Notes: generated by a model not told the origin, from the letters alone. A DNA stretch of 64,000 bases from an uncultured Chlamydiae bacterium (GCA_963754655.1 CAVWGN010000001.1:320001-384000), one strand, 5' to 3'; counted from the first letter of the stretch, positions 21,159 to 59,657 are shown. Numbers and translations are program-made.

Positions 21159-21173
21159 CTACGTATCTTATTT

Positions 21174-21247
21174 GCACTGGTAGCTCAATTGGATAGAGTA
21201 CCCGGCTACGAACCGGGCGGTTGGAGGTTCGAATCCTCTCCGGTGCG
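21174..21247 (+). tRNA. tRNA-Arg (ACG), CCA not encoded
   Basis: Acceptor stem GCACTGG/CCGGTGC, anticodon arm CCCGG-CTACGAA-CCGGG, T-loop GGTTCGAATCC. Confidence 0.97.
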
Positions 21248-22552: not shown

Positions 22553-22585
22553 AGAGAAATAGCCTCTTTCAGCTCTGACGATTTA

Positions 22586-22670
22586 GAAGGACAAAAAGGA
22601 CATAGGGACATAAAAGACGACATTTTTTTCTTGCGTCCTTTATGATGTCCCTTCCGTCCTTTTTTTCTGC
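22586..22670. terminator. Imperfect hairpin between convergent genes (possible bidirectional terminator or degenerate repeat)
   Basis: GGAC-rich arm (aaaaaggacatagggacataaaagacg) pairs with a GTCC-rich arm (cgtcctttatgatgtcccttccgtcctttttt). Confidence 0.4.
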
Positions 22671-22686
22671 CTAAATTTTTTGAATT

Positions 22687-23307
22687 TTATGCTAATTTTG
22701 AATAGGGTGGCGCAGATTGGTGGAAAGGATAAAGTTTTTGTTCAGGATAATATTCTATCAGATATTGCATTTGACCTGCACTTTCTTCTCCTGCCACATG
22801 AGAAATAAAGGCAAGTATCAAATCGATGCCACTTGAGACACCTGCCGAGGTCCAAATCTTCCCATCTTGATGATAGCGAGCATTGATGATATGAACATCG
22901 GCCCACTTTTTCAATTCTTCTTTAAGCAAATGATAGAGTGTGACCTGCTTTCCTTTTAATAATCCCGTTTCATACAAAATGAGGGTGCCTGTGCAAATAG
23001 AGAGAAGGAAATCTCCATATTTAAAAAATTCGCGAATAAATTCAATTGTTGCCGCATTATAGCGCTCGGTACGTGCGCCTTTACCGCCAGGGACAAGCAA
23101 GTAATCTAGCGAGGGACAATTGAAGTAATCATACTGCGTGTTGATATGCAAGCCTCGCCCACATGTTACGAAGCCTGCTTTGGGCCCAACCGTCACAATT
23201 TCTGGGCCAGAAGCAAAATCACGCCAAATCCCTACCATTTCCCAAGGGCCAGTTAATTCTAGCTCTTCCATGCCCTCAAATGATAGAAATCCAAAGCGCT
23301 TATCCAT
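22687..23307 (-). CDS. DJ-1/PfpI family protein (isonitrile-hydratase-like subgroup)
   Basis: ELELTGP, LLVPGG, catalytic SICTG and TSAGVSSGID motifs. Confidence 0.85.
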   Translation of the reverse strand: MDKRFGFLSFEGMEELELTGPWEMVGIWRDFASGPEIVTVGPKAGFVTCGRGLHINTQYDYFNCPSLDYLLVPGGKGARTERYNAATIEFIREFFKYGDFLLSICTGTLILYETGLLKGKQVTLYHLLKEELKKWADVHIINARYHQDGKIWTSAGVSSGIDLILAFISHVAGEESAGQMQYLIEYYPEQKLYPFHQSAPPYSKLA

Positions 23308-23465
23308 TTTTCCTCGTTTTCTTCAACTTTTATCGTATCAATAAACTGAAGGATTAAATTTTCACTTTTAATTTGTTTTATAACTTTATAATAAACTATA
23401 ATATCGAAATTATCAATTATTATTTGAATTAATCTTTTTTGATTGAAAATAAATTTACGAAAACG

Positions 23466-24194
23466 ATGGCATTTAATTTATCTCAACATGAAATTGCTGT
23501 TTGGACGATTGATTTACCTAAATTTTATGATCTTGCTGACTCTTATATTCTGCTATTGAGTCAAATAGAAAAAGAAATTGCGAATCGTTTCCTATTTCCG
23601 CATTTGAGAAACCATTATCTCATTTCTCATGGAATTATGCGAAAGCTCATTGCCTCTTATCTTGATCAAGATCCTACTCAAATTGAAATAAAGAAAACTT
23701 CTTTTGGAAAACCTTTTATCGCAAATCAATCTTTATCATTTAATCTTTCACATTCTCAAGACTATGCAATGATTGCCTTTGCTTTTGAGCGGGAAGTTGG
23801 CATTGACATTGAATATAAGCGGAAGGAAATTGTAGAGGATGATCTAGCAAGAAGCATTTTATCATTTAGCGAGTTTAAGAAATATCAGGAGCTCTCTTTG
23901 CTACAAAAAATTGATTATTTTTTTATTCAATGGACGCGTAAGGAAGCCTTTCTTAAAGCATTAGGGATTGGACTAAAGGGGGATTTAACACAAATTGACA
24001 TGCCAACTCAATTCAATGATGAATTCAATAATAAATTCTTTGAGATTGCCCCTTATGCTTCTCTCAGTCATTTAAATTGGTTATTAAATAATTTCTTTCC
24101 TTCTTCAAATTATGTCGCTTCCCTGGTTTGTCAATGCAATTCTTTTTTACCTAAAGTAAAATTTTATCATTATACCGAAAATTTGTTTCAGTAA
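23466..24194 (+). CDS. Sfp-type 4'-phosphopantetheinyl transferase
   Basis: FGKP, FNLSHS, VGIDIE and WTRKEAFLKALG motifs; probable ATG at 23466. Confidence 0.93.
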   Translation: MAFNLSQHEIAVWTIDLPKFYDLADSYILLLSQIEKEIANRFLFPHLRNHYLISHGIMRKLIASYLDQDPTQIEIKKTSFGKPFIANQSLSFNLSHSQDYAMIAFAFEREVGIDIEYKRKEIVEDDLARSILSFSEFKKYQELSLLQKIDYFFIQWTRKEAFLKALGIGLKGDLTQIDMPTQFNDEFNNKFFEIAPYASLSHLNWLLNNFFPSSNYVASLVCQCNSFLPKVKFYHYTENLFQ

Positions 24195-24208
24195 GCTAGG
24201 GAGCGTAC

Positions 24209-24640
24209 CTAAAAGATTAACCATTGTATAATACAAGCGATCGTCAACATTCCTGCATAATTTTGAGCTTTCATTTCGTATCTTATTCCAATACGCCTAA
24301 ATCGTTTTATAAACTGAAAAAAATTTTCTACCAAGCAACGCTCTCTGTAGATATGTTTATCATGTTCAATTAGTTCAGCTCTTGATACTTTGCTGGGTAT
24401 GACTGCTTGACTTCCCATCTTTTCTATAAAATTTCTGATTTCATTTGAGTCGTAAGCTTTATCAGCTATAACATTTTTTGGATTTTTTCCACTGAGTAAA
24501 AGCTTCATTTGAGTGCTCTCGTGTACTTGACCTTCTGTCAAGATAAAATCAATACAACGACCTAATCCATCTGTTACTGCATGAATTTTTGTGGTTGTTC
24601 CGGCCCTTGATTTTCCCATGGCTTCTTCGGCTTTTTTTTT
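24209..24640 (-). CDS. IS5-family transposase OrfB (DDE part, in the -1 frame)
   Basis: TKIHAVTD, ADKAYD, YRERCLVENFF and KRFRRI motifs; stop lies inside the TIR. Confidence 0.9.
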   Translation of the reverse strand, partial: KKKAEEAMGKSRAGTTTKIHAVTDGLGRCIDFILTEGQVHESTQMKLLLSGKNPKNVIADKAYDSNEIRNFIEKMGSQAVIPSKVSRAELIEHDKHIYRERCLVENFFQFIKRFRRIGIRYEMKAQNYAGMLTIACIIQWLIF

Positions 24641-24960
24641 ATCCTACAAGCATCTTGATGCGCTTCAACAATTGAGCTGTCTACAGAGTAATTTTCTTCG
24701 TCAATTTCATCTTTTAAAGCTTGCCAAATCGTTTGCCAGATTCCAGCCTTTGTCCATCGATTAAAGCGATTATAACATGTGCTCCAAGGACCATACTTGG
24801 GTGGTAGATCCCTCCAAGCGGCTCCTGTTCTTAAAATCCAAATAATGCCTTCTAAAATCTTACGATGAGGCCGACTTGGTCTGCCCCAATATCCTCGTTC
24901 TTTTGGCAATAAAGGTTTTATTTTTATCCATCTTTCATTAGTTAATACTATCCTACTCAT
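24574..24960 (-). CDS. IS5-family transposase OrfA (N-terminal part)
   Basis: WILRTGAAWRDLP..YGPWSTCYNRFNRW; VDSS; A9G slippery run at 24631-24640. Confidence 0.9.
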   Translation of the reverse strand: MSRIVLTNERWIKIKPLLPKERGYWGRPSRPHRKILEGIIWILRTGAAWRDLPPKYGPWSTCYNRFNRWTKAGIWQTIWQALKDEIDEENYSVDSSIVEAHQDACRIKKKPKKPWENQGPEQPQKFMQ

Positions 24961-25092
24961 TCAAATTTCCCCCTTGTTTTATCAGAGAAAATTATAAATC
25001 ATAAGAGTTATTATTTTAAATCTTTTAGGTACGTTCCCTAGTACTCCATTACATGAGTTTTTCGCTCTGGGTTCTAGGTGAGGGGATATGGA

Positions 25093-25982
25093 CCCACCGT
25101 TCGGTCGCCCTCCGGGCTCGGTCACGGTGGGCTAGGAACAGTCGTCCTCCGGACTCTAGCGGCATTATCAAAATGCCTTGACTAGCATTCTAGCAGCATT
25201 AACAAACATCTTATTACCAAACACCTTACCTAACATTCAATGGCTTCTACATTGCTGCTAGAGTCCGGAGGACGACTGTTATTAGCCCACCGTCGGGACT
25301 TAACAAAGAACTGTTTTGGACTTGATATTCGTCGCATCAATTTAACAACACCACGCCTGTAATAGACTTTAGAGGCATATTTCCCGAAAATGACGCGAAA
25401 AACATCAAGCCCAAAACAGTTCTTTGTTAAGTGCCGGCATATGGCTAGGTAATCGGAATTTTTATCTTTGTTTTTGCAATGTTGCTTGATCCATATCTTT
25501 TCCCTCAGCGACGAGCGGCGTTAGCCGCGCATGGATAGTAGCCGTGGGTGTAGGCGGAGCCGGAACCCACGGTTACCCAAAAAACAAATTTGAGCCACGT
25601 TAGTGGCGTAGCATTCGTTTAAATAAACATTGCTCCACAATCACATTTCCTACGCCACTAACGTGGCTTCATTTTTTTTACCATACACCGTGGGTTCCGG
25701 CTTCGCCTACACCCACGGCTACTATCCATGCGCGGCTAACGCCGCTTGAGCGACAAATTTAGCTTCTGGAGTTTGCCAGAAGCATTTCGTTCCTAGCCTA
25801 TGGCCGGGACTTAACAAAGAACTGTTTTGGGCTTGATGTTTTTCGTGTCAATTTTCGGGAAATATGCCTCTAAAGTCTATTACAGGCGGGGTGTTGTTAA
25901 ATTGACGGGACGAATATCAAGCCCAAAACAGTTCTTTGTTAAGTCCCGGCCCACCGTGACCGAGCCCGGCGGGCGACTGAAT
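25093..25982. repeat. REP-like doublet (second family) whose right arm is split by the composite
   Basis: Left arm ttcggtcgccctccgggctcggtcacggtgggctaggaacagtcgtcctccggactctagc; its reverse complement is restored by joining 25255-25292 to 25957-25982. Confidence 0.85.
25293..25949. mobile_element. Second copy of composite B-C-B' (657 bp), inverted relative to 712-1370
   Basis: Flanked by the 7-bp direct repeat cccaccg (25286-25292, 25950-25956). Confidence 0.9.
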
Positions 25983-26135
25983 GTTTCGCGTAGCCTACGC
26001 TTATCTCTTACCTTAACGCATAGGAATTTAAAACCATCCCAATAGGCAAAAAAACTCATGTAATGGAGTACTAGCGCCCAGAGACAATGTCATGCGTCGG
26101 TTCCATGAGGTCAATTAAAGTGCAAAGATTAACAA

Positions 26136-28496
26136 TTATTGATTCATTAAAATGAGGGTCTGCTGAGTAGGCCCTGAAAGAAGGGAAGTTGCACGGCCTT
26201 CTACCCAATCTTGATGCTGATCTCGATAATGAGGAGAGAGCGGATGACCGCTTTGGCCACAAGGCATTTGTAAAATGCCCTCCTTCTCATTTCCTGGAGC
26301 TACAACGAGTCTTTGTGAAGCCCCCTCCGTAGAGCTTATAACGCGCGGAACCCAATAATCTCCCGAAATAGAATCGGGTTTCATATTCAAAAAAACATCT
26401 GCTCCCGGAATCGCTCCGCTCAATGGATGAGAAATTGCCATTGTATTTCTTTTGCCCCATGTCTGTTCCTTTATTTTACCAGGAGGGGTTTTCTCTATCA
26501 TTTCATCTATAAAACTTAAAAGTTCCTTTTGCCAACTTCCATATTTCGGATTCGCAAGATAGTCCGGTTGTTGAGAGGCAATCAACCAAACAGGTTCTTC
26601 AAAGTCAAAGTGAGAAGCATGAAAAGAGGGATAAGCTAAAAAACAGGGTTTGAGAATTCTTTTAAGAACCTGTTGATAAACTTGTGCGCGAAATGAACGT
26701 ATCCAATAATAAGCAGCGGATTGAGCGGAAGCATGACCCTCCCAAGTGGAAATAACTTCTAAAAGTTCTTTTCTTTTTCCTTCCAAAAAGGGTGTCTTTT
26801 GAAGCGTTTGCATGAAAAGTTGATGCCACCTTTGAAAGAAAAAAGCTTCATCATCTAATTGAATAGATAACATCTTTTGTAATGTAAAATTAGAGGTTTC
26901 ATTCAAGCGACGTTGAATTTGATAGGCCCTTATTCCATTAATAAAATAGCTGCTGGACATCAGAGGATTTTTAGCAATATCTAGAGTGCGATTATTTGCT
27001 GTCCATAAAATCCCGTCTTTAGGATTCACAATTTTAGGATAGGAGCTCGGATCCATTTTTCCCAGCCATTGACAAGAAGGATCTTGCAACAAGATAGGAA
27101 GAGTGCCATCGAATCCCTGTCTCTCTGGCAGAGTTCCCACTAAAGTCCAGCCAATGTTCCCTTCACGATCGGCTAATAAACAATTTAAAATAGGCATTTT
27201 TATTTGCGGAATCTTGGCTAATGCCTCCTCAACTGAAGAAGCATTCTCTAGTTCCATGAGCTTTAAATTTAAACATTCAGGATCGTGGGCAATCCATTTT
27301 AGAGCAATGGGTTGATCAAAAAAATGATTGGCAAGCAAGGGTCCCCATTCTGTATCTGAAAATTCAATAATGTCAGGACTTTCTCCTTTAATGAAAATCA
27401 CTTCCTTGCGCTTGATCAGGGGTTTCCAACCTTCTACCGTCAAATAGTTCTCTTGATTTTCTGGATGAAGAGTGACCATGGCAATGTCTGCTGTATCCAG
27501 ATAAGCATTGGTAAATCCCCAAGCAATTTGGCCATTGCTTCCACAAATCATTAACGGCATGCCAGGAAGTGTCAATCCACAAATATCAACTTTATGAGAA
27601 TTTAAATTAAGGAAACGCGCCCTATACCAAATGGTTGGAACTGATAGACCAAGATGCATGTCACACGCAAGGATAGCTTTGCCATCTTTTGTCTTTTTTC
27701 CACTGACTGCCCAGTGATTGCTTCCTCCTAAGTGAGGCGCGTCTGCTTGAATTGGAATTTCCTCCATTGAGTGAACATCAAAGGAGTTCAAATAAGAGAA
27801 ATCTTCAGGAGGAGGAATAGGCACATAGGGGATTTTGCTTCCATCCAAAGGAGCGTCCCAAGGAGATCCCTGATGCAGAAAAAAATGACTAACGGAAGAA
27901 GGAAGCAGTCGATGCAAATATCCCTTCATTAAATCTTTTTCTCCTTCCGCATCTTGCAATTCGAAAAACAGATTTAATCCGACTAGTAAACTATCTTCTG
28001 GCTTCCAAGGTTGTGGAGAAGTGAAGAGCAGAAAATACTCAAATGGCTTTGCTTGTAAATGGGATAATCCCTGGTTGACTCCATGAGAATAAGCCTGCAA
28101 AATCTCTTGTTCTTCATGTGTTAATTGAGACCACATTTGTTTTGCGACCCGTCGAAGAGCATGGTATCGCCTTTTCTTATCAAATTCTAATGCAACTCTT
28201 CCCACTAACTCTGCTAGCTCTCCACTTGAGGCTCTTCGCAAGAGATCCATTTGAAAGAATCTTTCTTGAGCATGTAAAAATCCCAAAGCTTGCGCGATAT
28301 CTTCTCGATGGGAGGCCTGAATGGTAGGAATTCCTAATTGATCTCTATCAATGATCACTTGTTGTTTTAATCGGTCTAATGACAGATGACCTGTATGCAA
28401 GGGAAGGCTAGCGCGAAAGAGAAGGAGGATTCCTATTAAGCAGGCCAGCATGATTGCTGTGAAGATCATTAAGGCTTTCAACACATATTTTTTCAT
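26136..28496 (-). CDS. Penicillin acylase family Ntn-hydrolase, N-terminally anchored
   Basis: N-terminal TM; GFLHAQERFFQMDLLRR, G|SNHWAVSG nucleophile, DMHL, TANN and GQSGHPLSPHYRDQ motifs. Confidence 0.92.
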   Translation of the reverse strand: MKKYVLKALMIFTAIMLACLIGILLLFRASLPLHTGHLSLDRLKQQVIIDRDQLGIPTIQASHREDIAQALGFLHAQERFFQMDLLRRASSGELAELVGRVALEFDKKRRYHALRRVAKQMWSQLTHEEQEILQAYSHGVNQGLSHLQAKPFEYFLLFTSPQPWKPEDSLLVGLNLFFELQDAEGEKDLMKGYLHRLLPSSVSHFFLHQGSPWDAPLDGSKIPYVPIPPPEDFSYLNSFDVHSMEEIPIQADAPHLGGSNHWAVSGKKTKDGKAILACDMHLGLSVPTIWYRARFLNLNSHKVDICGLTLPGMPLMICGSNGQIAWGFTNAYLDTADIAMVTLHPENQENYLTVEGWKPLIKRKEVIFIKGESPDIIEFSDTEWGPLLANHFFDQPIALKWIAHDPECLNLKLMELENASSVEEALAKIPQIKMPILNCLLADREGNIGWTLVGTLPERQGFDGTLPILLQDPSCQWLGKMDPSSYPKIVNPKDGILWTANNRTLDIAKNPLMSSSYFINGIRAYQIQRRLNETSNFTLQKMLSIQLDDEAFFFQRWHQLFMQTLQKTPFLEGKRKELLEVISTWEGHASAQSAAYYWIRSFRAQVYQQVLKRILKPCFLAYPSFHASHFDFEEPVWLIASQQPDYLANPKYGSWQKELLSFIDEMIEKTPPGKIKEQTWGKRNTMAISHPLSGAIPGADVFLNMKPDSISGDYWVPRVISSTEGASQRLVVAPGNEKEGILQMPCGQSGHPLSPHYRDQHQDWVEGRATSLLSGPTQQTLILMNQ

Positions 28497-28500
28497 TCAA

Positions 28501-29919
28501 TCATTTTCCTTGAGATAAGACTAGGATATCAATTTTGGTCGAGAACTTTTTGCATGGTTTTCTTTCTCCCTGACATTGCATTTCATCTCTATAAATGAGT
28601 TCAATTAGAGGAGCTAAAGAAAGCCGCTTATACAGATCAGGCGTGATTTGCATCACTAAATGGGGATTAAATTGATAAAATTGGATCCAGGGTAATCCAA
28701 GATCGGATTGATCTTCAACAATTTGATAGTGCTTATACCCTTTCGGTAACAAAGAGCGATTTATTAAAAAAATGATGCTATTGGCAGGAATTGGAATGTC
28801 TAAATCTTTTAATAAAGTGAAGCCGCCATCTCTCTTAGTGACGCGAAAATAATGGATTGCATTGTAATCGGAGCTCATTTTAAATTTTTGTTGTAAATGA
28901 GAGGCAAAAATCGTCAAACTATCATGAAAAGGAATTTCAAAAATTTCCACATTCTGCCTTTCTGGCCATACATTAATATTTTTTAAAGGAAAATCAGGAA
29001 GGCTCTTTTCACCCAATGGCTTCAATTTGATCCCATTAGAATAGGCAATATCTTCTTCCTTTAAATCAGGTCGCATCAGGGAAAGTTCTTTTGCCTGTTG
29101 ATCGAGATTGTCTTCCTCTTTTTTATCAATTAAGCCCCGCAAAACCATGCTGATGCGCTGTCCTTTAGAGGATCCAGCTTGTTCTGTTCCATTCACATCC
29201 TCCGGAGATAAAACAGTGTGATAAGGAAGAAGAGCTGCGCCAGGATCTGTAGGACAATTGGATTCTTGATAGGTGATAGGTTCAACAGAAAACATGTTGA
29301 CTTCATCTTTGGGAAGCAAGGAAATTAAAAAGCGATCGTGACCAATAGGATCATGAAAAAGTGTTCCCGAAATTGTGAAATCAGCCATGTCCCAGTCAAT
29401 TAACGCTAAGTCGTGAACGAGAGCATAGTGTTGCTCTGGATGGAAATGCTCTTGTATATATTTAAACTGCCGAGGAAAGCTATCGCGATGAAAGGAGTGT
29501 GCATCATGGCTGACAATGAAATTAATTTCTCTAGTGACTCCCATGAGATGAATATTGAAGATTTTTTCAACAATCTCTTTGGCTTTTTGCGCATATTCAT
29601 TGAGAACTTTTTGTCCTGTTGGATCTTGAATTTCTGAGGATAGTTGAGATCCCTCTCCCCCTTCAGGCAAAATAGAAGCAATCGCAGACATTTCTGTTGT
29701 TCTTGGATTAAAATAGGTATCGGGCACTAATTTAATTTGCCTTGCATTAATTTGTTTAATTAATTGTTGTCCGATCTCATGCTTTTCGGGTGTCATATAA
29801 AAATAAGTCTTTGTTTGACCAAATTTAATCACCCAGATGTCTTGATTGTTAAGATGACCTGGTAAGCTTGGAAAATAAGAGGTGATAGGTAAAGAGGAAG
29901 AAGAAAGGAGGGGGTTCAT
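28501..29919 (-). CDS. Hypothetical protein with a possible 2OG-Fe(II) oxygenase motif set
   Basis: ATG at 29919 overlaps the upstream stop (ATGA) and has a GGGAG RBS; FHRD...YHTV...RISMVLR resembles HxD...H...RxS. Confidence 0.5.
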   Translation of the reverse strand: MNPLLSSSSLPITSYFPSLPGHLNNQDIWVIKFGQTKTYFYMTPEKHEIGQQLIKQINARQIKLVPDTYFNPRTTEMSAIASILPEGGEGSQLSSEIQDPTGQKVLNEYAQKAKEIVEKIFNIHLMGVTREINFIVSHDAHSFHRDSFPRQFKYIQEHFHPEQHYALVHDLALIDWDMADFTISGTLFHDPIGHDRFLISLLPKDEVNMFSVEPITYQESNCPTDPGAALLPYHTVLSPEDVNGTEQAGSSKGQRISMVLRGLIDKKEEDNLDQQAKELSLMRPDLKEEDIAYSNGIKLKPLGEKSLPDFPLKNINVWPERQNVEIFEIPFHDSLTIFASHLQQKFKMSSDYNAIHYFRVTKRDGGFTLLKDLDIPIPANSIIFLINRSLLPKGYKHYQIVEDQSDLGLPWIQFYQFNPHLVMQITPDLYKRLSLAPLIELIYRDEMQCQGERKPCKKFSTKIDILVLSQGK

Positions 29920-38398: not shown

Positions 38399-38405
38399 AA
38401 ATGAC

Positions 38406-42179: not shown

Positions 42180-42186
42180 ATCATTC

Positions 42187-45100
42187 TTAGTAAGTTAGAT
42201 TATTTTTAACTGTTTGAATATCAACAGCGCCTTCTGCTAGCTGTTGCAGTAGATTTAATGTTTTGTCAGAAGAAGGGGTTGTTCTCTCAACTGTATTTTG
42301 TTGTTTTTGCTTCAGCATCTCGATCATCTGGCCTTGTGCTTGACAGGTGTGATGAATAAAGAGATCAGCAATATTTATTTTCAAATTAAATTGATCTTGA
42401 AAGAGTTGATGAAGTTTAACGATTAACAAAGAATTTCCTCCTATTTCAAAAAAGCTATCGTGAAGCTGAATATGTGCGATAGGCAAAACGCTCTTCCAAA
42501 TCTGGAGAATTTGAATTTGGATTTCAGAATAAGTGTCATCTTGAAAAGAAGCGGGCTTTTTCCGATAAGTATTCAGTTGAAGATAAAGAGCAGGATAATT
42601 GATTTTCCCATTGGGGAGCCGAGGAAATTCCTCAATGAAAAGGAAAGCGTCGGGCATTAAATAAGGAGGAAGTTTTTTTCTGAGTTTTTCTTTAATGACA
42701 ATTCTCTTTTCATCGTAATGCTGGGTCATGGCTGCATGTGCAGGAATGATAAAAGCGGCAATTTCCGTTGAATTTTGGTTCATCTCTTGTCGGCAAATGA
42801 TCAGAGACTTGCCCACTTCTTCTAATTGATCAATGTTTGCTTGAATTTCCTCGGGCTCAATTCTAAAACCTCGTCTTTTAATCTGTCCATCCAGGCGGCC
42901 TAATAAGAAGAGAGTTCCATTTTTATCGTAGTAAGCCTTGTCTCCTGTTTTGTAGATTCTCTCTCCCGTTTCGGGATGAGAGAGAAACTTGGATTTGGTT
43001 AATTCAGGAAGATTAATATATTCTCGTGCAAGGCCTTCTCCTCCAATATAGAGTTCTCCGGCAACGCCAATAGGGACAACTTGCAAATAAGGATTTAAGA
43101 CAAAACAGCGCACGTTCTGAAGAGGTTTTCCAATTGGAATTGCCTGTTCAATATCTGTTTCAATCAAATGACATGCACAAGAAATTGAAGTTGCTTCTGT
43201 CGCTCCATAAGTATTGAGCAATTTAATTTGATGGCCAAAGTGACTTTTCCATTTCTGAAGTGTATATTTATTTAACCGCTCTCCACCGATGATCAAGAGT
43301 CTTAGGCTAGAGGGAAGAGAAAGATTTTTTTGAATCAAATAATCTGTAAAATCATGCCAATAAGAAGTAGGAAAATTCCATATGCTGATCTCATATTGAT
43401 GAGACATCTCAAGAATCTGATCAAAGGGTTCAACGAGAGCATTTCCTCTTAAGACAACTGTTCCACCAGCTAGAAGGCAGGGATAAATTTCTTCTGAGCT
43501 TGTATCCCAACTTATCGAGGCAAATTGTAAACAATGATCTTTCGAAGTCATTTCGAAGAGTGTTTTGGCTGCTAAAGCAAAATTAAGGAGAGAGTGATGT
43601 TCAACAGCCACTCCTTTGGGTTGACCGGTAGAGCCCGAAGTAAATAATAAATAGGCAAGTTGGTTTCTAAGATTGGAGATAGGAGAGAGTTTAACTGAGG
43701 ATTTTTCAGGAAGGTGAGCAGGATCGATAAGAGTGCCCTTAAAATAGGCGAAGCGATTAAGTAGAGTGGTTTGACAAATTAAAATATCAATCTTGGCTTC
43801 TTTAATGATCCATTCAATTCTTTCTTGAGGATAAGAAGGATCCAGGGGAACATAGGCACATCCGCATTGCATAATGGCTAAGAGAGTCGGGATCAGAAAA
43901 CGCGTTTTTTCCATTGCTAAACCGATGGCTTCTCCCTCTCTTCCTTTTACGAGAAGCAAGGCTTGCGCAATGGCTTGCGATGCCTCCAGGAGTTCTCGAT
44001 AGCTCATCTCCTTGCCTTCTGCAATAACGGCAATCGCATCTGGATGTTGCTGAGCTTGTTCTTTAATCAAATCAAAAACTGTTTCAACTGCCGGAAGTTC
44101 CACGTGCGTTTTGTTCCATTCTATCGTCATCATTTGCACGAGGCTTGGATGCATAAATTGTACAGCTTGAACCGGTTGATCAGAGAATCGAAGGACTTGC
44201 TTAATAAGGGTCATGTAATCTTCCGCGAATTGCTCAACAAGAAAAGTGGGTAGACGCTCTTCACGGTATTCAAATAGTAATGCAAGATGCTGGGATTTTT
44301 GGCGGACTTCTAATACTAGGTCATAAAGAACAGGATGATCAGATGGGTGGACAATCTCTACTGTTGCATTCGGGAAATGTGGAATCTCAACAGGAGCATT
44401 TTGCATGACAAACATCACTTGGAAAAGAGGATGAACGCCGTCTATTCGCTTCGGGTTAACGGCATTTAAAATTTCTTGAAAGGGCAGAGCTTCATTTTTA
44501 ATTCCCTTTTGCAGTCCTTCTTTGACTTGCTGCAAGACCTCCTCAAAAGTTGTATGGGGCGAAAATGTTGTCTTATTCACTAATGTATTGACGAAGAAAC
44601 CCAGAACATTTTGAAACTCAAAAGAAGCGCGATTGGCACTCGGATATCCAATCAGAATCGTCGATTGATCAGAATAGCGATGGAGTAAAGCGTGATAAAC
44701 TGCAAGGAGAAAACAAGCTAACGTACAATGAGATTTGTAAATAAAATGTTGGATTTCATCAAACAAAGATGTTTCAATCTTCATTTGAATATTTTTCCCT
44801 TTTTTATGATGAACTGCTTTGATGGGTTGGTGCTCATGTGAAATTGCCAAAATAGAACACTCATCCAAATGGCCTAAATCATTTTTCCAATTGACCTTCA
44901 ATTGCTGCCATTCTTCTGTTTGAGAAAATTGCTCTTGCCATAAAGAAAAATGAGAATAATCAGACTCTAAAGCAGGTAATGTCGCTTTTTTTCCGGCTAG
45001 ATGTCCTGCATATAGCGCAAAGAGTTCATTTGCAAATACTCCCATGGACCAGCCATCGCAGATCATGTGATGGAAATTAAAAATGATGACATGATCTTCA

Positions 45101-47427
45101 GAAGAAGAAAGGATGCCTACTCTCCATAAAGGTCCCTCGTTTAAAGAAAAAGGGATTTCAACGAGAGATTGATACATCTTGTTGAAAATTAATTCTTGAT
45201 TTTGACCTGAGCTCTCTTCAAGTATAATGGGAAGTGCTAAATGATCCTGAATGCATTGAACGAGAGAATCGTCTTTAAAAGAGAAGCACGTCTTTAGAAT
45301 TGAATGTCTATTGCTAAGTTCTTGAAGGGCTTGAATAAAAGCCATGCGGTCTAATGAACCTTTGAGCTTTAAAATAACTGGAATATGGTAATCGATGCGA
45401 GTGGGTTCGATCTGATGAGCCAGCCAAACTTCTCGTTGATTATAGGACATGGGAGCAGTTGTCAAGGAATTAGCGAAGGGAAAAGAAATAGAAGGCTCTT
45501 GTTTCCCACCCTTTGTGATTGCCAAAACATCTCTGACTGTTAAATCTTCAAAAAATGATTCAAAGGGAAGAGAAACTCCATATTGCCTTTTAAGCCAATT
45601 TTGCAATTGAACGGCCTTTATTGAATCCAAGCCATAATGAATCAACATCTCATGATCTTGGAGTTGTTGAGGCGCGATATTTAAGATTTTAGCTAAAGAA
45701 TCAAGGAAAGAAGCAGGTTTAGATGAATCCGTCACAAATCCCTCAATGGTACACGAAATAGTGGGAAGAGTATTCTCGAGAAACATTTGACGGCAAAGGT
45801 GATGTTGAATTTTGCCACTTGTTGTACGTGGAATTCCTCCAGGCTTTACTAAGATGATGGCATAGGGGTCGATTTGAAAAGATTGGCCAATCTCTTTCTT
45901 AGCAAATTTAAGAATGACAGAAAAGTCGGTTTCCTTGACTTTTTTGCGATCAAGTTCAAGAAGTACAACCAACTCTTCATTATTTTCAATTGATACGGAA
46001 AAAGCCGCTGCAGCACATCCTTTAAGTAATTCATTTTCACCAATGAGGCTATATTCAATATCATGCGGATAAAAGTTTTTGCCTCTAATAATGAGCATGT
46101 TTTTTAAACGGCCAGCTAGATAGAGTTCACCTTGATCTAATACACCTAAATCGCCTGTGCGTAGATAAGGGCCCTGCCTTTCTGCTGTATAAGCTTGAAA
46201 GACCTCAGATGTTTCTTGCGCAAGATTCCAATATCCTTGCGCAATAGAAGCACCCCCTAACCAAATTTCCCCTACTTCTCCTTCTTTTACTAAAGCTAAA
46301 GTTTGAGGATTGACAATTTTAATGTCGCAATCTTTTTGCGGAAATCCACAGCTTACAATGTCGAGGTTTCTATTTTCTGTCTCTAAGTGAAGCAAGCGGA
46401 TATTGGCTTTGCTGCCCACCTCGCCTCCCGTCACAAATAGAGTGGATTCAGCTAAGCCATAACAGGGATATGAACTAGAAGGTTGAAACCCACACACTTC
46501 AAATTTTTTAGCAAATGCAGTTAAGGTTTTAGCTCGAATGAATTCAGATCCATTAAAAGCAATTTTCCACGAGGAAAGATCTAAATCTTTTAAATTTTCA
46601 TCTCTGATCTGATTGAGGCATAGCTCATAGGCAAAATTTGGTCCTCCACTTGTTGTTCCACGATATTTTGAAATGGCTTGAAGCCAAAGAAAGGGATTTT
46701 GAAGAAAAGAAGCAGGAGCCATCAAAAAAGCAGAGACACCCAGATAAAGAGGCTGGAGAATATTACCGATAAGCCCCATATCATGGTAGAATGGGAGCCA
46801 TCCTATCACAATAGTTGACTCATCATGTTTAAAGGCGCTGGCAATTTGTTCTTCATTTCGCATCAAATTGCCATGTGTGATGATGACTCCTTTGGGTGTA
46901 GAAGTGGAGCCTGAAGTATATTGCAAAAAGGCAATCTGCTCTTCAGAAGGCGCCTTTAATGAGAGAACAGGATCTTGAAATGCCAATGCCTGGTCATAAT
47001 CAATCCAACTTGGATTTAATCTTTCTATCCATTTGGAATTTCTCAGCATGTGTGTGCGAATCTCTTTCGTTGTCAAAATATGCGAGGCTTTAGATTGTAA
47101 TAGAACGTTTTGAACTCGAGCAGATTGCCGTTTTCCTTGAGGCGGAGGAATGGGAACTGCAATAGCACCAGCATATAGACAACCCAAAAATGCAGAAATA
47201 AAGGAAGAATTCGAAGAGAAAAAAAGAACGACGGGCTGTTGGTGCAGTTGGAGAGCTTGTAAGTGAAAAGCAATGCAAGTTGCTTTTCGATGGAGGTCTT
47301 CAAAATCAAGAGTCTCTTCGATTTCACCTTCTTCATTTAAGAAACAAAAAGCAGCAGCGTTTGGGCGATCAATTGCCCATTCCGTGAGACAATGGACAAT
47401 CGTTTTAAATTGGCACTCTTTTTTCAT
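42187..47427 (-). CDS. Starter NRPS: FAAL-ACP-C-A-PCP
   Basis: FAAL (AFLQYTSGST, WLPFYHDMGLIG, CYGLAE), ACP GLDSI, C HHMICDG, A (FTSGSTG, YGATE), PCP GGNSL; probable ATG at 47427. Confidence 0.93.
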   Translation of the reverse strand: MKKECQFKTIVHCLTEWAIDRPNAAAFCFLNEEGEIEETLDFEDLHRKATCIAFHLQALQLHQQPVVLFFSSNSSFISAFLGCLYAGAIAVPIPPPQGKRQSARVQNVLLQSKASHILTTKEIRTHMLRNSKWIERLNPSWIDYDQALAFQDPVLSLKAPSEEQIAFLQYTSGSTSTPKGVIITHGNLMRNEEQIASAFKHDESTIVIGWLPFYHDMGLIGNILQPLYLGVSAFLMAPASFLQNPFLWLQAISKYRGTTSGGPNFAYELCLNQIRDENLKDLDLSSWKIAFNGSEFIRAKTLTAFAKKFEVCGFQPSSSYPCYGLAESTLFVTGGEVGSKANIRLLHLETENRNLDIVSCGFPQKDCDIKIVNPQTLALVKEGEVGEIWLGGASIAQGYWNLAQETSEVFQAYTAERQGPYLRTGDLGVLDQGELYLAGRLKNMLIIRGKNFYPHDIEYSLIGENELLKGCAAAAFSVSIENNEELVVLLELDRKKVKETDFSVILKFAKKEIGQSFQIDPYAIILVKPGGIPRTTSGKIQHHLCRQMFLENTLPTISCTIEGFVTDSSKPASFLDSLAKILNIAPQQLQDHEMLIHYGLDSIKAVQLQNWLKRQYGVSLPFESFFEDLTVRDVLAITKGGKQEPSISFPFANSLTTAPMSYNQREVWLAHQIEPTRIDYHIPVILKLKGSLDRMAFIQALQELSNRHSILKTCFSFKDDSLVQCIQDHLALPIILEESSGQNQELIFNKMYQSLVEIPFSLNEGPLWRVGILSSSEDHVIIFNFHHMICDGWSMGVFANELFALYAGHLAGKKATLPALESDYSHFSLWQEQFSQTEEWQQLKVNWKNDLGHLDECSILAISHEHQPIKAVHHKKGKNIQMKIETSLFDEIQHFIYKSHCTLACFLLAVYHALLHRYSDQSTILIGYPSANRASFEFQNVLGFFVNTLVNKTTFSPHTTFEEVLQQVKEGLQKGIKNEALPFQEILNAVNPKRIDGVHPLFQVMFVMQNAPVEIPHFPNATVEIVHPSDHPVLYDLVLEVRQKSQHLALLFEYREERLPTFLVEQFAEDYMTLIKQVLRFSDQPVQAVQFMHPSLVQMMTIEWNKTHVELPAVETVFDLIKEQAQQHPDAIAVIAEGKEMSYRELLEASQAIAQALLLVKGREGEAIGLAMEKTRFLIPTLLAIMQCGCAYVPLDPSYPQERIEWIIKEAKIDILICQTTLLNRFAYFKGTLIDPAHLPEKSSVKLSPISNLRNQLAYLLFTSGSTGQPKGVAVEHHSLLNFALAAKTLFEMTSKDHCLQFASISWDTSSEEIYPCLLAGGTVVLRGNALVEPFDQILEMSHQYEISIWNFPTSYWHDFTDYLIQKNLSLPSSLRLLIIGGERLNKYTLQKWKSHFGHQIKLLNTYGATEATSISCACHLIETDIEQAIPIGKPLQNVRCFVLNPYLQVVPIGVAGELYIGGEGLAREYINLPELTKSKFLSHPETGERIYKTGDKAYYDKNGTLFLLGRLDGQIKRRGFRIEPEEIQANIDQLEEVGKSLIICRQEMNQNSTEIAAFIIPAHAAMTQHYDEKRIVIKEKLRKKLPPYLMPDAFLFIEEFPRLPNGKINYPALYLQLNTYRKKPASFQDDTYSEIQIQILQIWKSVLPIAHIQLHDSFFEIGGNSLLIVKLHQLFQDQFNLKINIADLFIHHTCQAQGQMIEMLKQKQQNTVERTTPSSDKTLNLLQQLAEGAVDIQTVKNNLTY

Positions 47428-49276
47428 ATGGTTGTAGCTTTTTTTCAATTAACTTTAACATTTCATTTGGATGACGAATAAAAAAGTGATCGCCGCTCAT
47501 CTCATAAAAGGCAGTTGCTTGTTGACTAAATGTTTTCCATCCTTCGATATCTTCTCTTTTTACAGTTTGATCTTCACGACCTCCAAACAATAAAAAAGAA
47601 GAATTAAGAGGGGCTTGCACGGAGGGTTGATAGTGATCAAGGAGGCGAAAATCGGCTCTTAAAATAGGAAGGAAAAAGTCTTTGAAAACCTCTTCTTTCA
47701 AAATCATTTCTGGCGTTCCATTTAATTTTTCTACTCTTTCAATAAAATCTTGATCATCGAGCATTCCCATTTGTGATAGAGGCCCTAATCGATCTGGAGA
47801 GGGACAGGCAGATAGGCAAAGAACTGAGGGTTCTAAACGATATTTATTCTTAAATTGCTGAGCTAATTCATACGCGACTAGAGCTCCTAAACTATGGCCA
47901 AAAAAAGCAAATTGAGACGAGATTTTGCATTTGACTTGTTTTTCTAACTCATCTAGCAAGTGATCGAATTGTTGAAGGGGTGGAACGTGACTTAACACTC
48001 CTCTGCCAGGATATTCAACGGGAATCACTTCTATGAAAGGCGGCAAGGAGTGACTCCAGTCTTTAAAAAGATTCGCTGAACCTCCTGCATAAGGAAAACA
48101 AAACAAATGCATGACGTGAGAGTTTTGAATGAAATATTCAGCGATCTCTACAGAAGAATAGCCCTTTAAACGTAACACTTCTTTTAGAATGGCATTGACT
48201 TCTTCTAAAGAATCCCTTTTCAACTCATGCAGCTTTTTGAGTTCAGAATATAAAGATTGAATCCTTCGCTGTTGCTCGGGTTGAAAAACTGTTTTATTCT
48301 TTGTGGTGGCTATGACTGTCAACGCTTTGGAAGCTGAATGGGAAATAGAGTGTGTGGAAACAGGTTCAAACCAAGAAGAGGATAATTCTTTAAAATTAAA
48401 TTCCACTGCCTGGCAGTTGACAGTAGGGAAAGAGTCGTTGAAAAATCTTAGCAATGTTCTTTTAGGGCCTATTTCTAATACATGGTCGCAATCTTGTTGA
48501 ACAAAAAATTGCATGGTATCCAGCCATTTAACAGGAGAAATGATTTGGACGGAGAGCAATCTTTTCATTTCTTCTACGCTTTCATAGGGTTTGGCTGTCA
48601 CATTAGAAATCACAGGAATCTGTGGAAAATTAAAAGAGGTGTGTTTGAGTTCTGTTTCAAATAATGAAACTGTCTCTTTTAATAAAGGAGTATGAAAAGG
48701 AAGATTAAGCTTTAAAAGTTTGGTTTGAGCGCCTAGCTTGTTGAGTTCTTTGGCCATCTGCTCAACAGGAAAAGCTAAACCCGAGATGACAATTTGCCTC
48801 ATTGAATTGATATTAGAAATATAGACATTCTCAAATTTAGCCATAACTTCATTTAGTTGATTAAGGGAGATGTTTTCAACAGCGCACATCTCCGCTGATC
48901 CTTCTCTTAAATTTCCCGCCATCAACTTAGCACGACTCTGGACGAGTTTAAGTCCCTCAAAAAAATCTAAAGCGCTTGAACAGACAAGTGCAGAATATTC
49001 TCCTAAACTGTGACCAGCGAAAAAATGAGGAAGATAAGAAAATTGTTCTTGAAACACTCGATAGGCGATGACGCTCAAAGAAAAAATTGCTGGCTGAGCA
49101 AAAGTTGTGTTGTATAATTCACTGCCAACAAGATTGCGCCCAAGAAGATCAAACCCTACTCTTTCACTTGCTTCATCAAATAACTTTCGAGCCAACACAT
49201 AGTCTTCATACAAACGCACTCCCATTCCGGAATATTGAGACCCCTGGCCTGGAAAAACGACGGCAAATTTATTCAT
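47405..49276 (-). CDS. Fusion of a FabD-like trans-acyltransferase and a type II thioesterase
   Basis: AT: FPGQGSQ, GHSLGEY, PFHT, EIGP; TE: FCFPYAGGSA, GHSLG, LRADF, GDHFF. Confidence 0.92.
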   Translation of the reverse strand: MNKFAVVFPGQGSQYSGMGVRLYEDYVLARKLFDEASERVGFDLLGRNLVGSELYNTTFAQPAIFSLSVIAYRVFQEQFSYLPHFFAGHSLGEYSALVCSSALDFFEGLKLVQSRAKLMAGNLREGSAEMCAVENISLNQLNEVMAKFENVYISNINSMRQIVISGLAFPVEQMAKELNKLGAQTKLLKLNLPFHTPLLKETVSLFETELKHTSFNFPQIPVISNVTAKPYESVEEMKRLLSVQIISPVKWLDTMQFFVQQDCDHVLEIGPKRTLLRFFNDSFPTVNCQAVEFNFKELSSSWFEPVSTHSISHSASKALTVIATTKNKTVFQPEQQRRIQSLYSELKKLHELKRDSLEEVNAILKEVLRLKGYSSVEIAEYFIQNSHVMHLFCFPYAGGSANLFKDWSHSLPPFIEVIPVEYPGRGVLSHVPPLQQFDHLLDELEKQVKCKISSQFAFFGHSLGALVAYELAQQFKNKYRLEPSVLCLSACPSPDRLGPLSQMGMLDDQDFIERVEKLNGTPEMILKEEVFKDFFLPILRADFRLLDHYQPSVQAPLNSSFLLFGGREDQTVKREDIEGWKTFSQQATAFYEMSGDHFFIRHPNEMLKLIEKKLQPYEKRVPI

Positions 49277-49302
49277 CTATGCACTCAATTTAGGGATAGA
49301 GA

Positions 49303-50481
49303 TTAACAACAGCTTAGTTCATTTGAATAAGCAACCGCTAATGGATGATTGAGTGAAGCGGGATAGGTGTATTGCTCATTTTTAAAGTTTCTGAGTACAA
49401 CTTGATTTTCTGATAAATTGACAAGGTAATTGGGATTGAGTGGAATCTTGCCTCCGCCTCCTGGTGCATCCACAACAAATTGAGGAATTGCATACCCTGT
49501 TGTATGTCCTCTCATTTGCTCAATGAGTTCTATTCCTCTTTTCACATCAGTTCTAAAATGAGAACTTCCCGTAATCAAATCGCATTGATAAAGATAATAA
49601 GGACGTACTCCCATTTGAAGAAGGCGATGGGATAAGGAGATTAAAATCTCCGGCTGGTCATTAATGTCTTTTAATAAAACGGATTGATTCCCTAAGACAA
49701 CTTTAGAACAAAGCAGTCTTTCGCAAGCTTCTTTAAGTTCGATCGTGCATTCTTTGGGATGATTGACGTGAATACTCAACCATAAGGGCCCAAATGTTTT
49801 AAATATCTCGCATAATTCCGGCGTGATTCTTTGAGGCATAAAAACAGGAATTCTAGAACCTAAACGCACAAACTCGACATGATCAATTGCTTTTAAACGC
49901 TCGAGCAGTAATTTCAATTTTCTATCTGGCAAGAGTAGAGGATCTCCTCCACTAATCAAGACATCTCTAATCTCTTTATGGTCTTCAATATATTGAATCG
50001 CTTGATCGAACTTGGGGTGAAAATCATAGTTTTGTGCATTTGAAACTAGCCGGCTACGCGTACAATAGCGACAATAAGAACCGCAATGGCTTGTCACAAG
50101 AAATAAGACACGATCAGGATAACGATGAATAAGACCATCGACGGGTTGAGTTTTCTCTTCTCCTACGGGATCTAACAACTCTTCCTGAGAAACAATTGTT
50201 TCCTCTCTTCTTGGAATGACTTGTTTTCGTATTGGACAGTTGGGATCGTTTGCATCGATTAAATTAAAATAGTAAGGTGTCACTGCAACAAGCAGTTTTT
50301 GCTTGGCATAGCTAAAACCTTCTTCTTCACTCGCTGTCAACTTTAAATGCTGTTTAAAATCATTCGCACTTAAGAATCGTTTGCGGAGTTGCCAATGCCA
50401 ATCTTTCCAATCACTTTCTGCTATCTCACTCCATAAGCCTTGGCCTTTTAACCATTGATTCAAATGATCTCTGGGGTACAT
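49303..50481 (-). CDS. kamA: Lysine 2,3-aminomutase (radical SAM/PLP)
   Basis: WKDWHWQL, HRYPDRVL, CGSYCRYC, YQCD and VDAPGGGGKIP motifs. Confidence 0.9.
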   Translation of the reverse strand: MYPRDHLNQWLKGQGLWSEIAESDWKDWHWQLRKRFLSANDFKQHLKLTASEEEGFSYAKQKLLVAVTPYYFNLIDANDPNCPIRKQVIPRREETIVSQEELLDPVGEEKTQPVDGLIHRYPDRVLFLVTSHCGSYCRYCTRSRLVSNAQNYDFHPKFDQAIQYIEDHKEIRDVLISGGDPLLLPDRKLKLLLERLKAIDHVEFVRLGSRIPVFMPQRITPELCEIFKTFGPLWLSIHVNHPKECTIELKEACERLLCSKVVLGNQSVLLKDINDQPEILISLSHRLLQMGVRPYYLYQCDLITGSSHFRTDVKRGIELIEQMRGHTTGYAIPQFVVDAPGGGGKIPLNPNYLVNLSENQVVLRNFKNEQYTYPASLNHPLAVAYSNELSCC

Positions 50482-50687
50482 ATTTCTTCTTCATAAATAG
50501 ATTAGTAATGCAAGAGTCGAGACATAGGATGAGCAGAATAATAACAGTCGCTAAAAAAAGCTAGTTAAAATGAAATTGATAGCCAATCACGCTCTTGCTA
50601 ACGAAGAAGAATGGCTAAAATGGCTAGAATTAAAAAGAATTTTAACCAAGAAATGCGACCCATCTTCCTGGTCTAGAAATGTTAGCT

Positions 50688-52388: not shown

Positions 52389-52406
52389 AATTTATACCTT
52401 GGTGGC

Positions 52407-53143: not shown

Positions 53144-53147
53144 TGTC

Positions 53148-54053: not shown

Positions 54054-54339
54054 TTTTTATGCTTTGATAATCAAATAGATGAAACAGAAAAATAGCTTAG
54101 TATATTGTATTTTTATCTGCAACTTTAAAAATTTAAATGATGGTATTTATTTTTTCTATTGCGCTAGCTGATTGATCATTGTCCCTTACCTTCTTCTACG
54201 AAACTATCTGATGAGACGCATGAAAAAATTAGCATATAAAAAATTATAGTTTTAAATTATGAATAAAAATAGTGTTGTTTTAATCTTATATTTATGTTTA
54301 AATCAAATTTCATCAATAATTAATTGGAGTTTATTTATT

Positions 54340-59601: not shown

Positions 59602-59657
59602 AAGGCAAAATTTTGAATAATTTTTATTAATAACTATAATCATAAAGGAATAATTTG

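Follow-up and report, generated by a model that had tools for sequence, protein, structure and literature searches.

Gene organization and domain composition

The DNA analysed here is a 64,000-nt stretch (the window; GCA_963754655.1 CAVWGN010000001.1:320001-384000, in our numbering G000:C1:320001-384000) from an uncultured Chlamydiae bacterium. It carries a compact gene cluster that combines polyketide synthase (PKS) and nonribosomal peptide synthetase (NRPS) modules. Positions are counted from the first nucleotide of the window. Domains are abbreviated as KS (ketosynthase), KR (ketoreductase), AT (acyltransferase), TE (thioesterase), FAAL (fatty acyl-AMP ligase), C (condensation), A (adenylation), E (epimerization), MT (methyltransferase), and ACP and PCP (acyl and peptidyl carrier proteins). 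The core of the cluster consists of the following eight genes, given with the evidence used for each assignment.

49303..50481, minus strand: KamA-family radical S-adenosylmethionine (SAM) aminomutase, most like lysine 2,3-aminomutase (Pfam, NCBIfam, alignment with 2A5H)
47405..49276, minus strand: FabD-like acyltransferase fused to a thioesterase (AT-TE), the only AT and the only TE of the line (PF00698, PF00975)
42187..47448, minus strand: FAAL-ACP-C-A-PCP, loading module and module 1 (Pfam, NCBIfam, motifs, PDB matches)
38406..42179, minus strand: KS-KR-ACP, module 2 (Pfam, NCBIfam, motifs)
30971..38398, minus strand: KS-ACP-C-A(MT between a2 and a3)-PCP-E, modules 3 and 4 (Pfam, NCBIfam, motifs, PDB matches)
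29916..30974, minus strand: stand-alone class I SAM methyltransferase (Pfam, NCBIfam, PDB)
28501..29952, minus strand: orphan protein of 483 residues with two domains resembling the double-stranded beta-helix (DSBH) of 2-oxoglutarate (2OG) oxygenases (predicted model, conserved residues)
26136..28496, minus strand: penicillin-amidase-family N-terminal nucleophile (Ntn) hydrolase, here called the acylase (PF01804, 1.4e-148)

The array runs without interruption from 50481 to 26136, and all of its frames are open in the list of open reading frames (ORFs). The spacings between successive genes are 26, −44, 7, 7, −4, −37, and 4 nt. The domains were found by Pfam and NCBIfam with E-values from 1e-10 to 1e-164, and approximately 24 kb of coding sequence is free of frameshifts and stop codons. 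A first-pass annotation, made by a model from the sequence, had described eight coupled minus-strand genes with these domain strings, and its coordinates and domains are correct. It had also called the ORFs open and the KS triads and carrier serines intact. This is confirmed by the active-site Cys and the histidines of the HGTGT and NIGH motifs in both KS domains, and by the serine in five of five carrier domains.

The domain content of the three megasynthases amounts to a FAAL-ACP unit and four extension modules (C-A-PCP, KS-KR-ACP, KS-ACP, and C-A(MT)-PCP-E). The only three condensation-family domains and the only two modular KS domains of the genome are all located in this cluster. As seen, the line is complete, and the E domain must be where it ends; release is assigned to the TE acting in trans.

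Initiation and the first building block

The KamA-family protein aligns without gaps to the Clostridium lysine 2,3-aminomutase 2A5H (4.9e-124). It keeps the cysteine triad of the CxxxCxxC motif, the pyridoxal phosphate lysine, and the aspartates at positions 293 and 330 of 2A5H, which we take to bind the epsilon-ammonium group of lysine. Its best NCBIfam model is the AblA/lysine model (TIGR03820), and it passes the cut-off of the KamA-family subfamily model TIGR00238 only (347 against 199).

The FAAL domain of the first synthetase has six FAALs as its top six PDB matches, including 7r7g (3.3e-135), 3kxw, FadD23, FadD32, and FadD28. It reaches 443.5 bits with NF004509, which is below the whole-protein cut-off of 775. 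The synthetase as a whole is collinear with positions 9–1715 of the 4334-position NRPS model NF004282 (1147.8 bits). Core motifs and the carrier serine are present in the C-A-PCP modules, and HHxxxDG is found in both C domains and in the terminal domain.

The specificity codes of the A domains were read from the core motifs by hand and then by script, at positions taken from the GrsA numbering. The script reading of the first A domain is DTEWIGTSIK, and it is identical in the window, in SZAS-7, and in the related locus L004. The acidic residue at position 239 would fit a basic substrate. The code of the second A domain, DLTKIGEVGK, is shared with SZAS-7. PMC12283262 discusses it in the section on Asp/Asn/cyano-Ala, and its place there under Asn/cyano-Ala domains upholds the earlier assignment of an Asn-type domain. 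Judging from these residues, beta-lysine and Asn would be reasonable building blocks.

PKS modules and the discrete AT

Neither PKS protein contains a PF00698 AT domain according to Pfam; this family was found only in the separate AT-TE protein. In comparisons with solved structures, the KS domains rank high against those of trans-AT systems (7zma, PksL, PksJ, and an "AT-less PKS"), and cis-AT KS structures match too. The AT scores 256.2 bits with the fabD model, just below the cut-off of 260.9, and the named proteins nearest to it include Bacillus and Paenibacillus ACP S-malonyltransferases. The serines of both GHSxG motifs are present in the AT-TE protein. Its fusion is not unique, as AT-TE fusions are also known in Nocardia and Sorangium. 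With no AT within the PKS modules and a discrete AT encoded beside them, the trans-AT PKS/NRPS logic and the module order proposed earlier hold.

Terminal NRPS module and methyltransferases

The MT domain of the last module is inserted after a2 and before a3 of the second A domain. In the text available from PMC11355689, this position is described only for TioN and MarQ, which methylate the side-chain sulfur of Cys or Cys-derived substrates; the present A domain shares the interruption between a2 and a3 with them but has an Asn-type code. The first-pass annotation had placed a methyl group on the Asn residue. The location of the MT leaves the site of methylation unsettled.

The terminal domain carries HHxxxDG at residue 2172, after the PCP. 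Residues 1579–2457 of the synthetase align to the A-PCP-E protein TycA and residues 1952–2460 to the PCP-E region of PvdL, so the domain was rightly called an E domain. Further E-domain motifs were read against the usual consensus. The stand-alone methyltransferase shows weak similarities, mostly to amine N-methyltransferases, and it has orthologues with 55–63% identity in the related loci L001 and L003.

The orphan protein

No Pfam or NCBIfam family matches the orphan protein, and an ESM Atlas search gave no usable match. Among 5.8 billion clusters, just 13 matching proteins were found, and a profile search of 1.84 billion proteins gave 65 family representatives with no tail into other families. 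Two chance-level matches aside, none of the 13 members matches a Pfam family at E ≤ 1, and the N-terminally extended members of the family likewise have no Pfam match (16 of 16).

The AlphaFold model, built with 13 sequences, has two beta-rich halves (pLDDT 75.8, pTM 0.79). In a VIA-align search with this model, almost all of the top 50 rows are Fe(II)/2OG oxygenases. The C-terminal half aligns with 2rg4 (Z 11.4, rmsd 4.8, 159 residues aligned), 6tp5_B (Z 10.5, rmsd 3.7, 166 residues), and AlkB 3khb (Z 10.5, rmsd 3.3, 152 residues), and the N-terminal half aligns with PiuC 9qn0 (Z 9.2, rmsd 3.9, 175 residues) and PHD2 2y33 (Z 8.9, rmsd 4.5, 185 residues). The oxygenase signal is moderate because best Z values of 7–8 are common by chance in VIA-align. 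A Foldseek search of the PDB returned bicupins and OGFOD1/Tpa1 with TM-scores of only 0.1–0.23.

The candidate active-site residues are located in the N-terminal half. His144, Asp146, His234, Arg255, and Ser257, which form an HxD...H...RxS pattern, are invariant in all 13 close members. A wider alignment was made of the 43 longest of the 65 representatives, with 22 fragments or short matches set aside. All five residues are present in 26 of these 43 sequences and the H-D-H triad in 28; the remaining 15 do not have the metal triad and have mostly lost the other residues too. A metal/2OG site that a protein either retains or gives up would produce such a correlated pattern, which also suggests that the paralogues without the triad may be catalytically dead. 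The orphan protein is placed in the 2OG superfamily by its fold and motif, not by its sequence. It is probably an Fe/2OG hydroxylase with a catalytic N-terminal half and a degenerate C-terminal half, as judged from the model and the conserved residues. The tentative label of "possible oxygenase" in the first-pass annotation is thus strengthened by the DSBH-like halves and the conserved H-D-H, Arg, and Ser.

OGFOD1 and Tpa1 provide an architectural parallel: they also contain two DSBH domains in one chain, and the candidate metal and 2OG residues of the orphan protein lie only in the N-terminal half, as in these proteins. However, they have no detectable sequence similarity to the orphan protein, and the whole chains superimpose poorly (306–310 residues aligned with an rmsd of 13–15 Å). 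Moreover, OGFOD1 and Tpa1 belong to a translation context, whereas the orphan gene is located in a biosynthetic cluster.

In the DNA fetched around the 13 members, PKS/NRPS genes lie beside the orphan gene in eight loci, and a KamA-like gene is found near it in five, including both actinomycete loci. In the latter two, from Glycomyces (L011, 9575-19040) and Saccharothrix (L013), the orphan gene is followed directly by the KamA-like radical-SAM gene. The pair in Glycomyces is followed by genes for an ATP-grasp ligase, a sulfotransferase, a PCP-A protein, a C domain, and an ABC transporter, which together make up a small uncharacterised cluster. Some chlamydial genomes have two to four clustered orphan paralogues (G253:C1:221022-250549; L006, 3704-11371; L007, 8555-11323).

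Negamycin, an antibiotic containing delta-hydroxy-beta-lysine, was considered as a lead. According to the available text of two preprints, its cluster contains the genes to hydroxylate lysine and to form beta-lysine. The lead was dropped because that text does not place the hydroxylase in the orphan family.

Proposed pathway

Based on these assignments, we propose the following pathway. KamA would convert L-lysine to beta-lysine, which the first C domain would join to a fatty acid loaded by the FAAL. Two malonyl units would then be added, and the first ketone may stay unreduced because the KR has no catalytic Tyr. A methylated Asn would be added and epimerised to the D-form, and the trans TE would release the chain. 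Tailoring, either of the chain or of a building block, would fall to the stand-alone methyltransferase and to the orphan protein with its tandem DSBH fold, a probable Fe/2OG hydroxylase. A more speculative step is the removal of the fatty acyl group by the exported Ntn acylase once outside the cytoplasm, comparable to the action of PvdQ in pyoverdine maturation. The product after deacylation would be a small cationic beta-lysyl-diketide-D-Asn and not a lipopeptide. On balance, we consider it probable, with modest confidence, that the region is an intact and self-contained hybrid trans-AT PKS/NRPS cluster, carried on a 30.6-kb island by an uncultured soil bacterium of the family Parachlamydiaceae and operating in this way. 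The product suggested in the first-pass annotation, fatty acyl-beta-Lys-(two malonyl extensions)-methyl-D-Asn, is retained in part: the KamA residues, the Asn-type code, and the E domain support its building blocks, while the methylation site and the retained lipid are in doubt.

Several observations speak against this pathway. KamA falls below every NCBIfam equivalog cut-off (456.3 against 525.4 for the lysine model, 420 against 650 for glutamate, and 392 against 600 for arginine). The residue at position 278 of the first A domain depends on the register, being W in the script reading and N in the first hand count, and neither version of the code was matched in the literature that was searched. 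The best PDB match of the inserted MT is the backbone N-methylase TioS (5.7e-19), which is at odds with its TioN/MarQ-like position. The AT-TE protein does not occur in the orthologous clusters of SZAS-7 and G413. The orphan protein has no sequence link to any Pfam family, and its HxD motif lies in a stretch of the model with a pLDDT of approximately 64. In the KR (38910-39602), a Cys occupies the position of the catalytic Tyr in alignments with the KR structures of MlnE and PksJ, so reduction would be either absent or brought about by an unfamiliar chemistry. The acylase shows only remote similarity to PvdQ (31.8 bits with NF051460, whose cut-off is 950, and E-values of 3e-7 with PvdQ structures) and is not found in the SZAS-7 cluster. 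Finally, a search of sequencing runs found no RNA run with the stretch.

The KR deserves separate consideration. Its NADPH motif and its Lys, Ser, and Asn residues are all present, and the Cys-Cys motif with its surroundings is kept in the orthologues of SZAS-7 and G413. The overall identity of these orthologues is only 52–56%, and conservation of the motif at this distance argues for selection on the Tyr-less KR. The Cys-for-Tyr exchange therefore points to a conserved non-canonical function, as far as the aligned residues can tell, and not to decay. A hydroxyl group from the first extension is doubtful.

The same evidence bears on whether the cluster is silent or a relic, that is, structurally intact but unexpressed or without a product in an obligate symbiont. 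The missing catalytic Tyr and the lack of an RNA run would agree with such a state, as would an insertion sequence (IS) that has 23 full-length copies in the genome and has landed beside the operon, and the absence of the oxygenase marker from the three genus-mates. However, a relic would not be expected to retain approximately 24 kb of undisrupted coding sequence in which all catalytic motifs other than the KR Tyr are intact. The conservation of the KR motif in two distant orthologues indicates selection, and the IS and other repeats lie outside the coding sequence. We regard a silent or relic cluster as improbable.

The acylase and the fate of the acyl chain

The first-pass annotation described the end product as a lipopeptide. 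This is uncertain because the cluster encodes an Ntn acylase that appears to be exported. The N-terminus of the protein is hydrophobic, and the Gly/Ser site of self-cleavage at residue 259 is intact; in alignments with PDB entries, the mature beta-chains start at Ser259. Among solved structures, the protein is closest to D-succinylase (3.6e-44), penicillin G acylase, and glutaryl-7-ACA acylase. In pyoverdine maturation, PvdQ removes the acyl chain, and the combination of a FAAL start with an exported Ntn acylase is the pyoverdine arrangement. As both elements occur in one operon here, we propose by analogy that the acylase may remove the fatty acyl group after export. This step is a serious possibility that falls somewhat short of probable, because the enzyme is no orthologue of PvdQ and has no counterpart in the SZAS-7 cluster.

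Alternatively, the end product may keep the fatty acyl group as a true lipopeptide-polyketide, and the acylase may serve in self-protection or recycling, or may hydrolyse acyl-homoserine lactones or beta-lactam-like compounds of foreign origin. Lipoinitiation usually follows the FAAL-ACP-C logic, and both the relatives of the acylase outside the PvdQ group and the acylase-free cluster of SZAS-7 are compatible with a retained chain. Yet the acylase gene follows the oxygenase gene after 4 nt in the same operon-like array, and an orthologue occupies the same position in locus L003 of a Parachlamydiaceae metagenome-assembled genome (MAG). The hydrophobic N-terminus, the intact nucleophile, and the parallel with pyoverdine likewise favour a dedicated deacylation. 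A retained acyl chain is therefore possible but rather unlikely in our view.

Comparison with known systems

The order FAAL-ACP-C-A-PCP of the first synthetase matches the FAAL-T-C-A-T start of PvdL, and the penicillin-amidase-family hydrolase in the operon recalls the periplasmic PvdQ. However, pyoverdine is made by a chromopeptide siderophore line, whereas the present PKS-NRPS line is short, its acylase is not orthologous to PvdQ, and deacylation is only proposed. Bacillaene-type trans-AT hybrids (PksJ/PksL) share the KS modules without AT and the discrete FabD-like AT, and the KS and KR domains match the structures of PksJ, PksL, and MlnE best or near best. The present line differs in being much smaller, with two KS modules, in having its AT fused to its only TE and a Cys for Tyr in its KR, and in its predicted starter, a fatty acyl-(beta-)amino acid.

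The clusters for streptothricins and for viomycin/capreomycin likewise encode a KamA-family aminomutase of their own. There, beta-lysine is a side chain that is added by stand-alone enzymes and is not known to be extended by a PKS, whereas a PKS-extended beta-lysine is proposed here. The N-acyl-D-Asn prodrug systems (colibactin with ClbN/ClbP, xenocoumacin, and zwittermicin) resemble the cluster in combining an acyl chain and a hydrolase with an A-PCP-E module coded for Asn. However, their D-Asn module is the first one and not the last, so that the acyl group is on the opposite end. In addition, the hydrolase of the cluster is an Ntn acylase, and Pfam detected no ClbP-type peptidase domain in the cluster.

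Host genome and accessory island

The assembly comprises 3,158,578 bp in two contigs, and the cluster is located inside the 3,123,268-bp contig, which represents the chromosome. Housekeeping genes flank it on both sides. In a tblastn synteny comparison with a genus-mate (G115), the order of the flanking genes is kept with 59–89% identity, but the genes ahpC and psd are only 757 bp apart there, and the stretch between them is missing. Nucleotide similarity in blastn ends at approximately 22527 and restarts at approximately 53158. The missing stretch is the following feature.

22553..53147 (30.6 kb), no strand assigned: accessory island between ahpC and psd (tblastn synteny and blastn of the boundaries against G115)

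Since this stretch is missing between ahpC and psd of the genus-mate, it is an accessory island of the chlamydial chromosome; the comparison involves one genus-mate, and it is equally compatible with loss in G115 and gain in the host. The GC content of the cluster is 39.05%, close to the 38.79% of the chromosome and at the 56th percentile of 128 windows of the same size. By tetranucleotide distance from the genome, it ranks at the 90.6th percentile of genome windows. Nothing points strongly to a recent foreign origin of the island.

The host was taken to be a chlamydia in the first-pass annotation, and the genome bears this out. Besides the backbone syntenic with G115, it has four TLC nucleotide-transporter genes, of which none of 14 control genomes had a match, and an Hc1 gene, and it belongs to the same family as Parachlamydiaceae bacterium MGR_bin407, the genome that bears locus L003. 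We also considered whether the island is a mis-binned or chimeric piece of another soil bacterium. The genome seems to have been assembled from a metagenome, the sole run with any of the stretch is a soil-metagenome DNA run containing a small share (0.17) of its words, and the tetranucleotide distance is rather high. Against this stand the length of the contig, the syntenic housekeeping genes on both sides, the ordinary GC content, the occurrence in the island of the host genome's own IS and repeats, and the fact that the nearest relatives of the island sit in other chlamydial MAGs. A non-chlamydial origin is thus highly improbable.

An integration linked to a tRNA gene was considered and rejected: the sole tRNA gene of the window (tRNA-Arg, 21173-21248) is located 1.3 kb outside the island, with conserved genes in between.

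Distribution and related clusters

The KS-KR-ACP protein was used as a query against 61 genomes of the family, and 14 of them, including the host itself, matched at E ≤ 1e-30 (13 of the 60 others). Open frames of 7,000–9,500 residues occur in some of these genomes. A full-length orthologue was found only in G230 and G413 (54% identity). Some family-mates (G401, G095, G127, and G402) have very large modular PKS genes with many KS domains and open frames of 6,000–9,500 residues. With the orphan protein as the query, eight of 400 scored genomes in a sample of the phylum matched, again with the host included; one genome was not scored. There was no match in the three genus-mates and one in 45 family-mates, and all seven matches other than the host fall within the same order. 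The orphan protein also occurs in public records, among them several chlamydial MAGs, two MAGs with Verrucomicrobia in their titles, Candidatus Megaera venefica, Glycomyces, and Saccharothrix.

The SZAS-7 contig keeps the gene order of the present cluster, with kamA, MT, FAAL-NRPS, KS-KR-ACP, KS-NRPS, MT, and the orphan gene at 45–72% identity. The cluster of G413 contains kamA, FAAL-NRPS, KS-KR-ACP, and KS-NRPS up to the end of the contig. The conservation of these collinear orthologues, whose identities lie within that range, argues for selection on the cluster. KS-NRPS, MT, orphan, and acylase genes are found in L003, whereas L002 and L004 have genes for the orphan protein, PPTase (4'-phosphopantetheinyl transferase), KamA, a stand-alone TE, FAAL-NRPS, and a KS protein in a different order. 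The comparison of these loci describes a cluster family that appears patchily distributed among environmental chlamydiae.

An antiSMASH survey across the phylum (Dharamshi et al. 2022, PMC9666466), in the portion available, reports that biosynthetic clusters are widespread, especially in Parachlamydiaceae. Its Data S10 gives "NRPS" regions for MGR_bin407 and O_S4.2_7, both of which have relatives of the cluster. These regions are putatively the same loci, although the match is by genome only; the survey gives region types only, with weak top MIBiG scores of 0.56–0.69 (enniatin, cyclic tetrapeptide, and thalassospiramide). Together with the modular KS domains in family-mates and the orthologous clusters in MAGs, the survey indicates that the rarity of such assembly lines in chlamydiae was overstated in the first-pass annotation. 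The cluster family is uncharacterised yet already catalogued. We found no characterised relative in comparisons that included no MIBiG-type one, and among the papers listed in full-text literature searches, judged by titles and abstracts, none describes a PKS-NRPS primed with beta-lysine.

Possible function

Chlamydiae were long thought to have no secondary metabolism. To our knowledge, no chlamydial gene cluster has yet been tied to a molecule. The cluster family may produce a previously unseen scaffold, a PKS-extended beta-lysine capped with a methylated D-Asn, in which the acyl group is a temporary handle and which acts on the amoeba host or on intracellular competitors. The orphan oxygenase, the Tyr-less KR-like domain, and the Asn A domain interrupted between a2 and a3 would shape this scaffold. 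We offer this view as a speculation that is unlikely to hold in full. If it were true, the small cationic molecule released would be a chemical basis for symbiont-mediated protection of the host. The available text of PMC9666466 raises the idea that chlamydial clusters might underlie the protection of amoebae against Legionella by some Parachlamydiaceae.

At approximately 24 kb, the cluster is a complete, closed, and compact example that brings its own PPTase, AT, and TE and whose size would suit heterologous expression. Three enzyme leads come with it, namely the orphan family of putative Fe/2OG oxygenases, which travels with KamA-like aminomutases even in actinomycetes, the conserved Tyr-less KR, and the interrupted Asn A domain. 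As far as its genes indicate, the cluster appears to be a sound lead for genome mining, and these three oddities seem worth testing.

Other genes and repeats of the island

Three further genes lie within the island.

22687..23307, minus strand: DJ-1/PfpI family protein (Pfam PF01965, 1.1e-25)
23439..24194, plus strand: Sfp-type PPTase (PF01648, PF22624)
50688..52388, minus strand: DUF2339 membrane protein (PF10101)

The PPTase scores 132 bits with the HetI model (cut-off 370), and PPTase homologues adjoin the related clusters L002, L004, L006, and L008. The membership of the DJ-1 gene in the cluster is doubtful because it was not found beside related clusters (no tblastn match in L001–L018). 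The DUF2339 protein was found in neither the three genus-mates nor G230, and it was rejected as a conserved member of the cluster because it was not found in the related loci. A role for it as an exporter or immunity factor is a guess.

Repeats absent from the first-pass annotation occupy the interval between the PPTase and acylase genes, and a palindrome marks the right edge of the island.

24196..25041, no strand assigned: 846-bp IS with 23-nt terminal inverted repeats (PF13340 (DUF4096), PF01609 (DDE_Tnp_1), inverted-repeat search)
25038..26074, no strand assigned: two nested palindromic non-coding repeats resembling miniature inverted-repeat transposable elements (MITEs), downstream of the operon (inverted-repeat search)
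52475..53142, no strand assigned: 668-bp palindrome at the right island edge (262-nt arms, 100% complementary)

The IS transposase is encoded in two minus-strand frames (24574-24960 and 24209-24619). The IS has 24 matches in the genome, of which 23 are full-length copies with 96–100% identity; these near-identical copies suggest recent or ongoing transposition in an obligate symbiont. The nested repeats consist of an inner element of approximately 660 bp and an outer element that is split into parts of approximately 230 and 110 bp, and they look like MITEs, one inserted in another. They have 183 matches in the genome, some in tandem (e.g. G000:C1:413204-416387), and they also occur in the window at 709-1380. 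Neither the IS, the MITE-like repeats, nor the palindrome interrupts a gene. An Rfam search over 22400-53200 gave only sub-threshold matches on hairpins, which were judged spurious; one of these, Acido-Lenti-1 (36.4 bits against a gathering threshold of 37), is mirrored on both strands within the 668-bp palindrome and is probably a hairpin artefact.

Other parts of the genome and window

The second contig of the assembly (35,310 bp, 39.4% GC) may be a plasmid. Within the syntenic backbone of the window, variable genes are located at 19544-21112, 54259-57261, and 59655-60608. Among the variable genes, an RHS-repeat protein is only partially conserved in the genus-mates, and a 1000-residue TPR protein and a 317-residue ORF are not present in the corresponding region of G115. 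In the 559-residue ORF at 3503-5182, the N-terminal 440 residues have no NCBIfam match, and residues 443–529 alone match ThyX (62 bits against a cut-off of 87.9). The tRNA-Arg(ACG) gene at 21173-21248 overlaps the TTG start of an MBL-fold ORF (21221-21886), the true start of which is probably further downstream.

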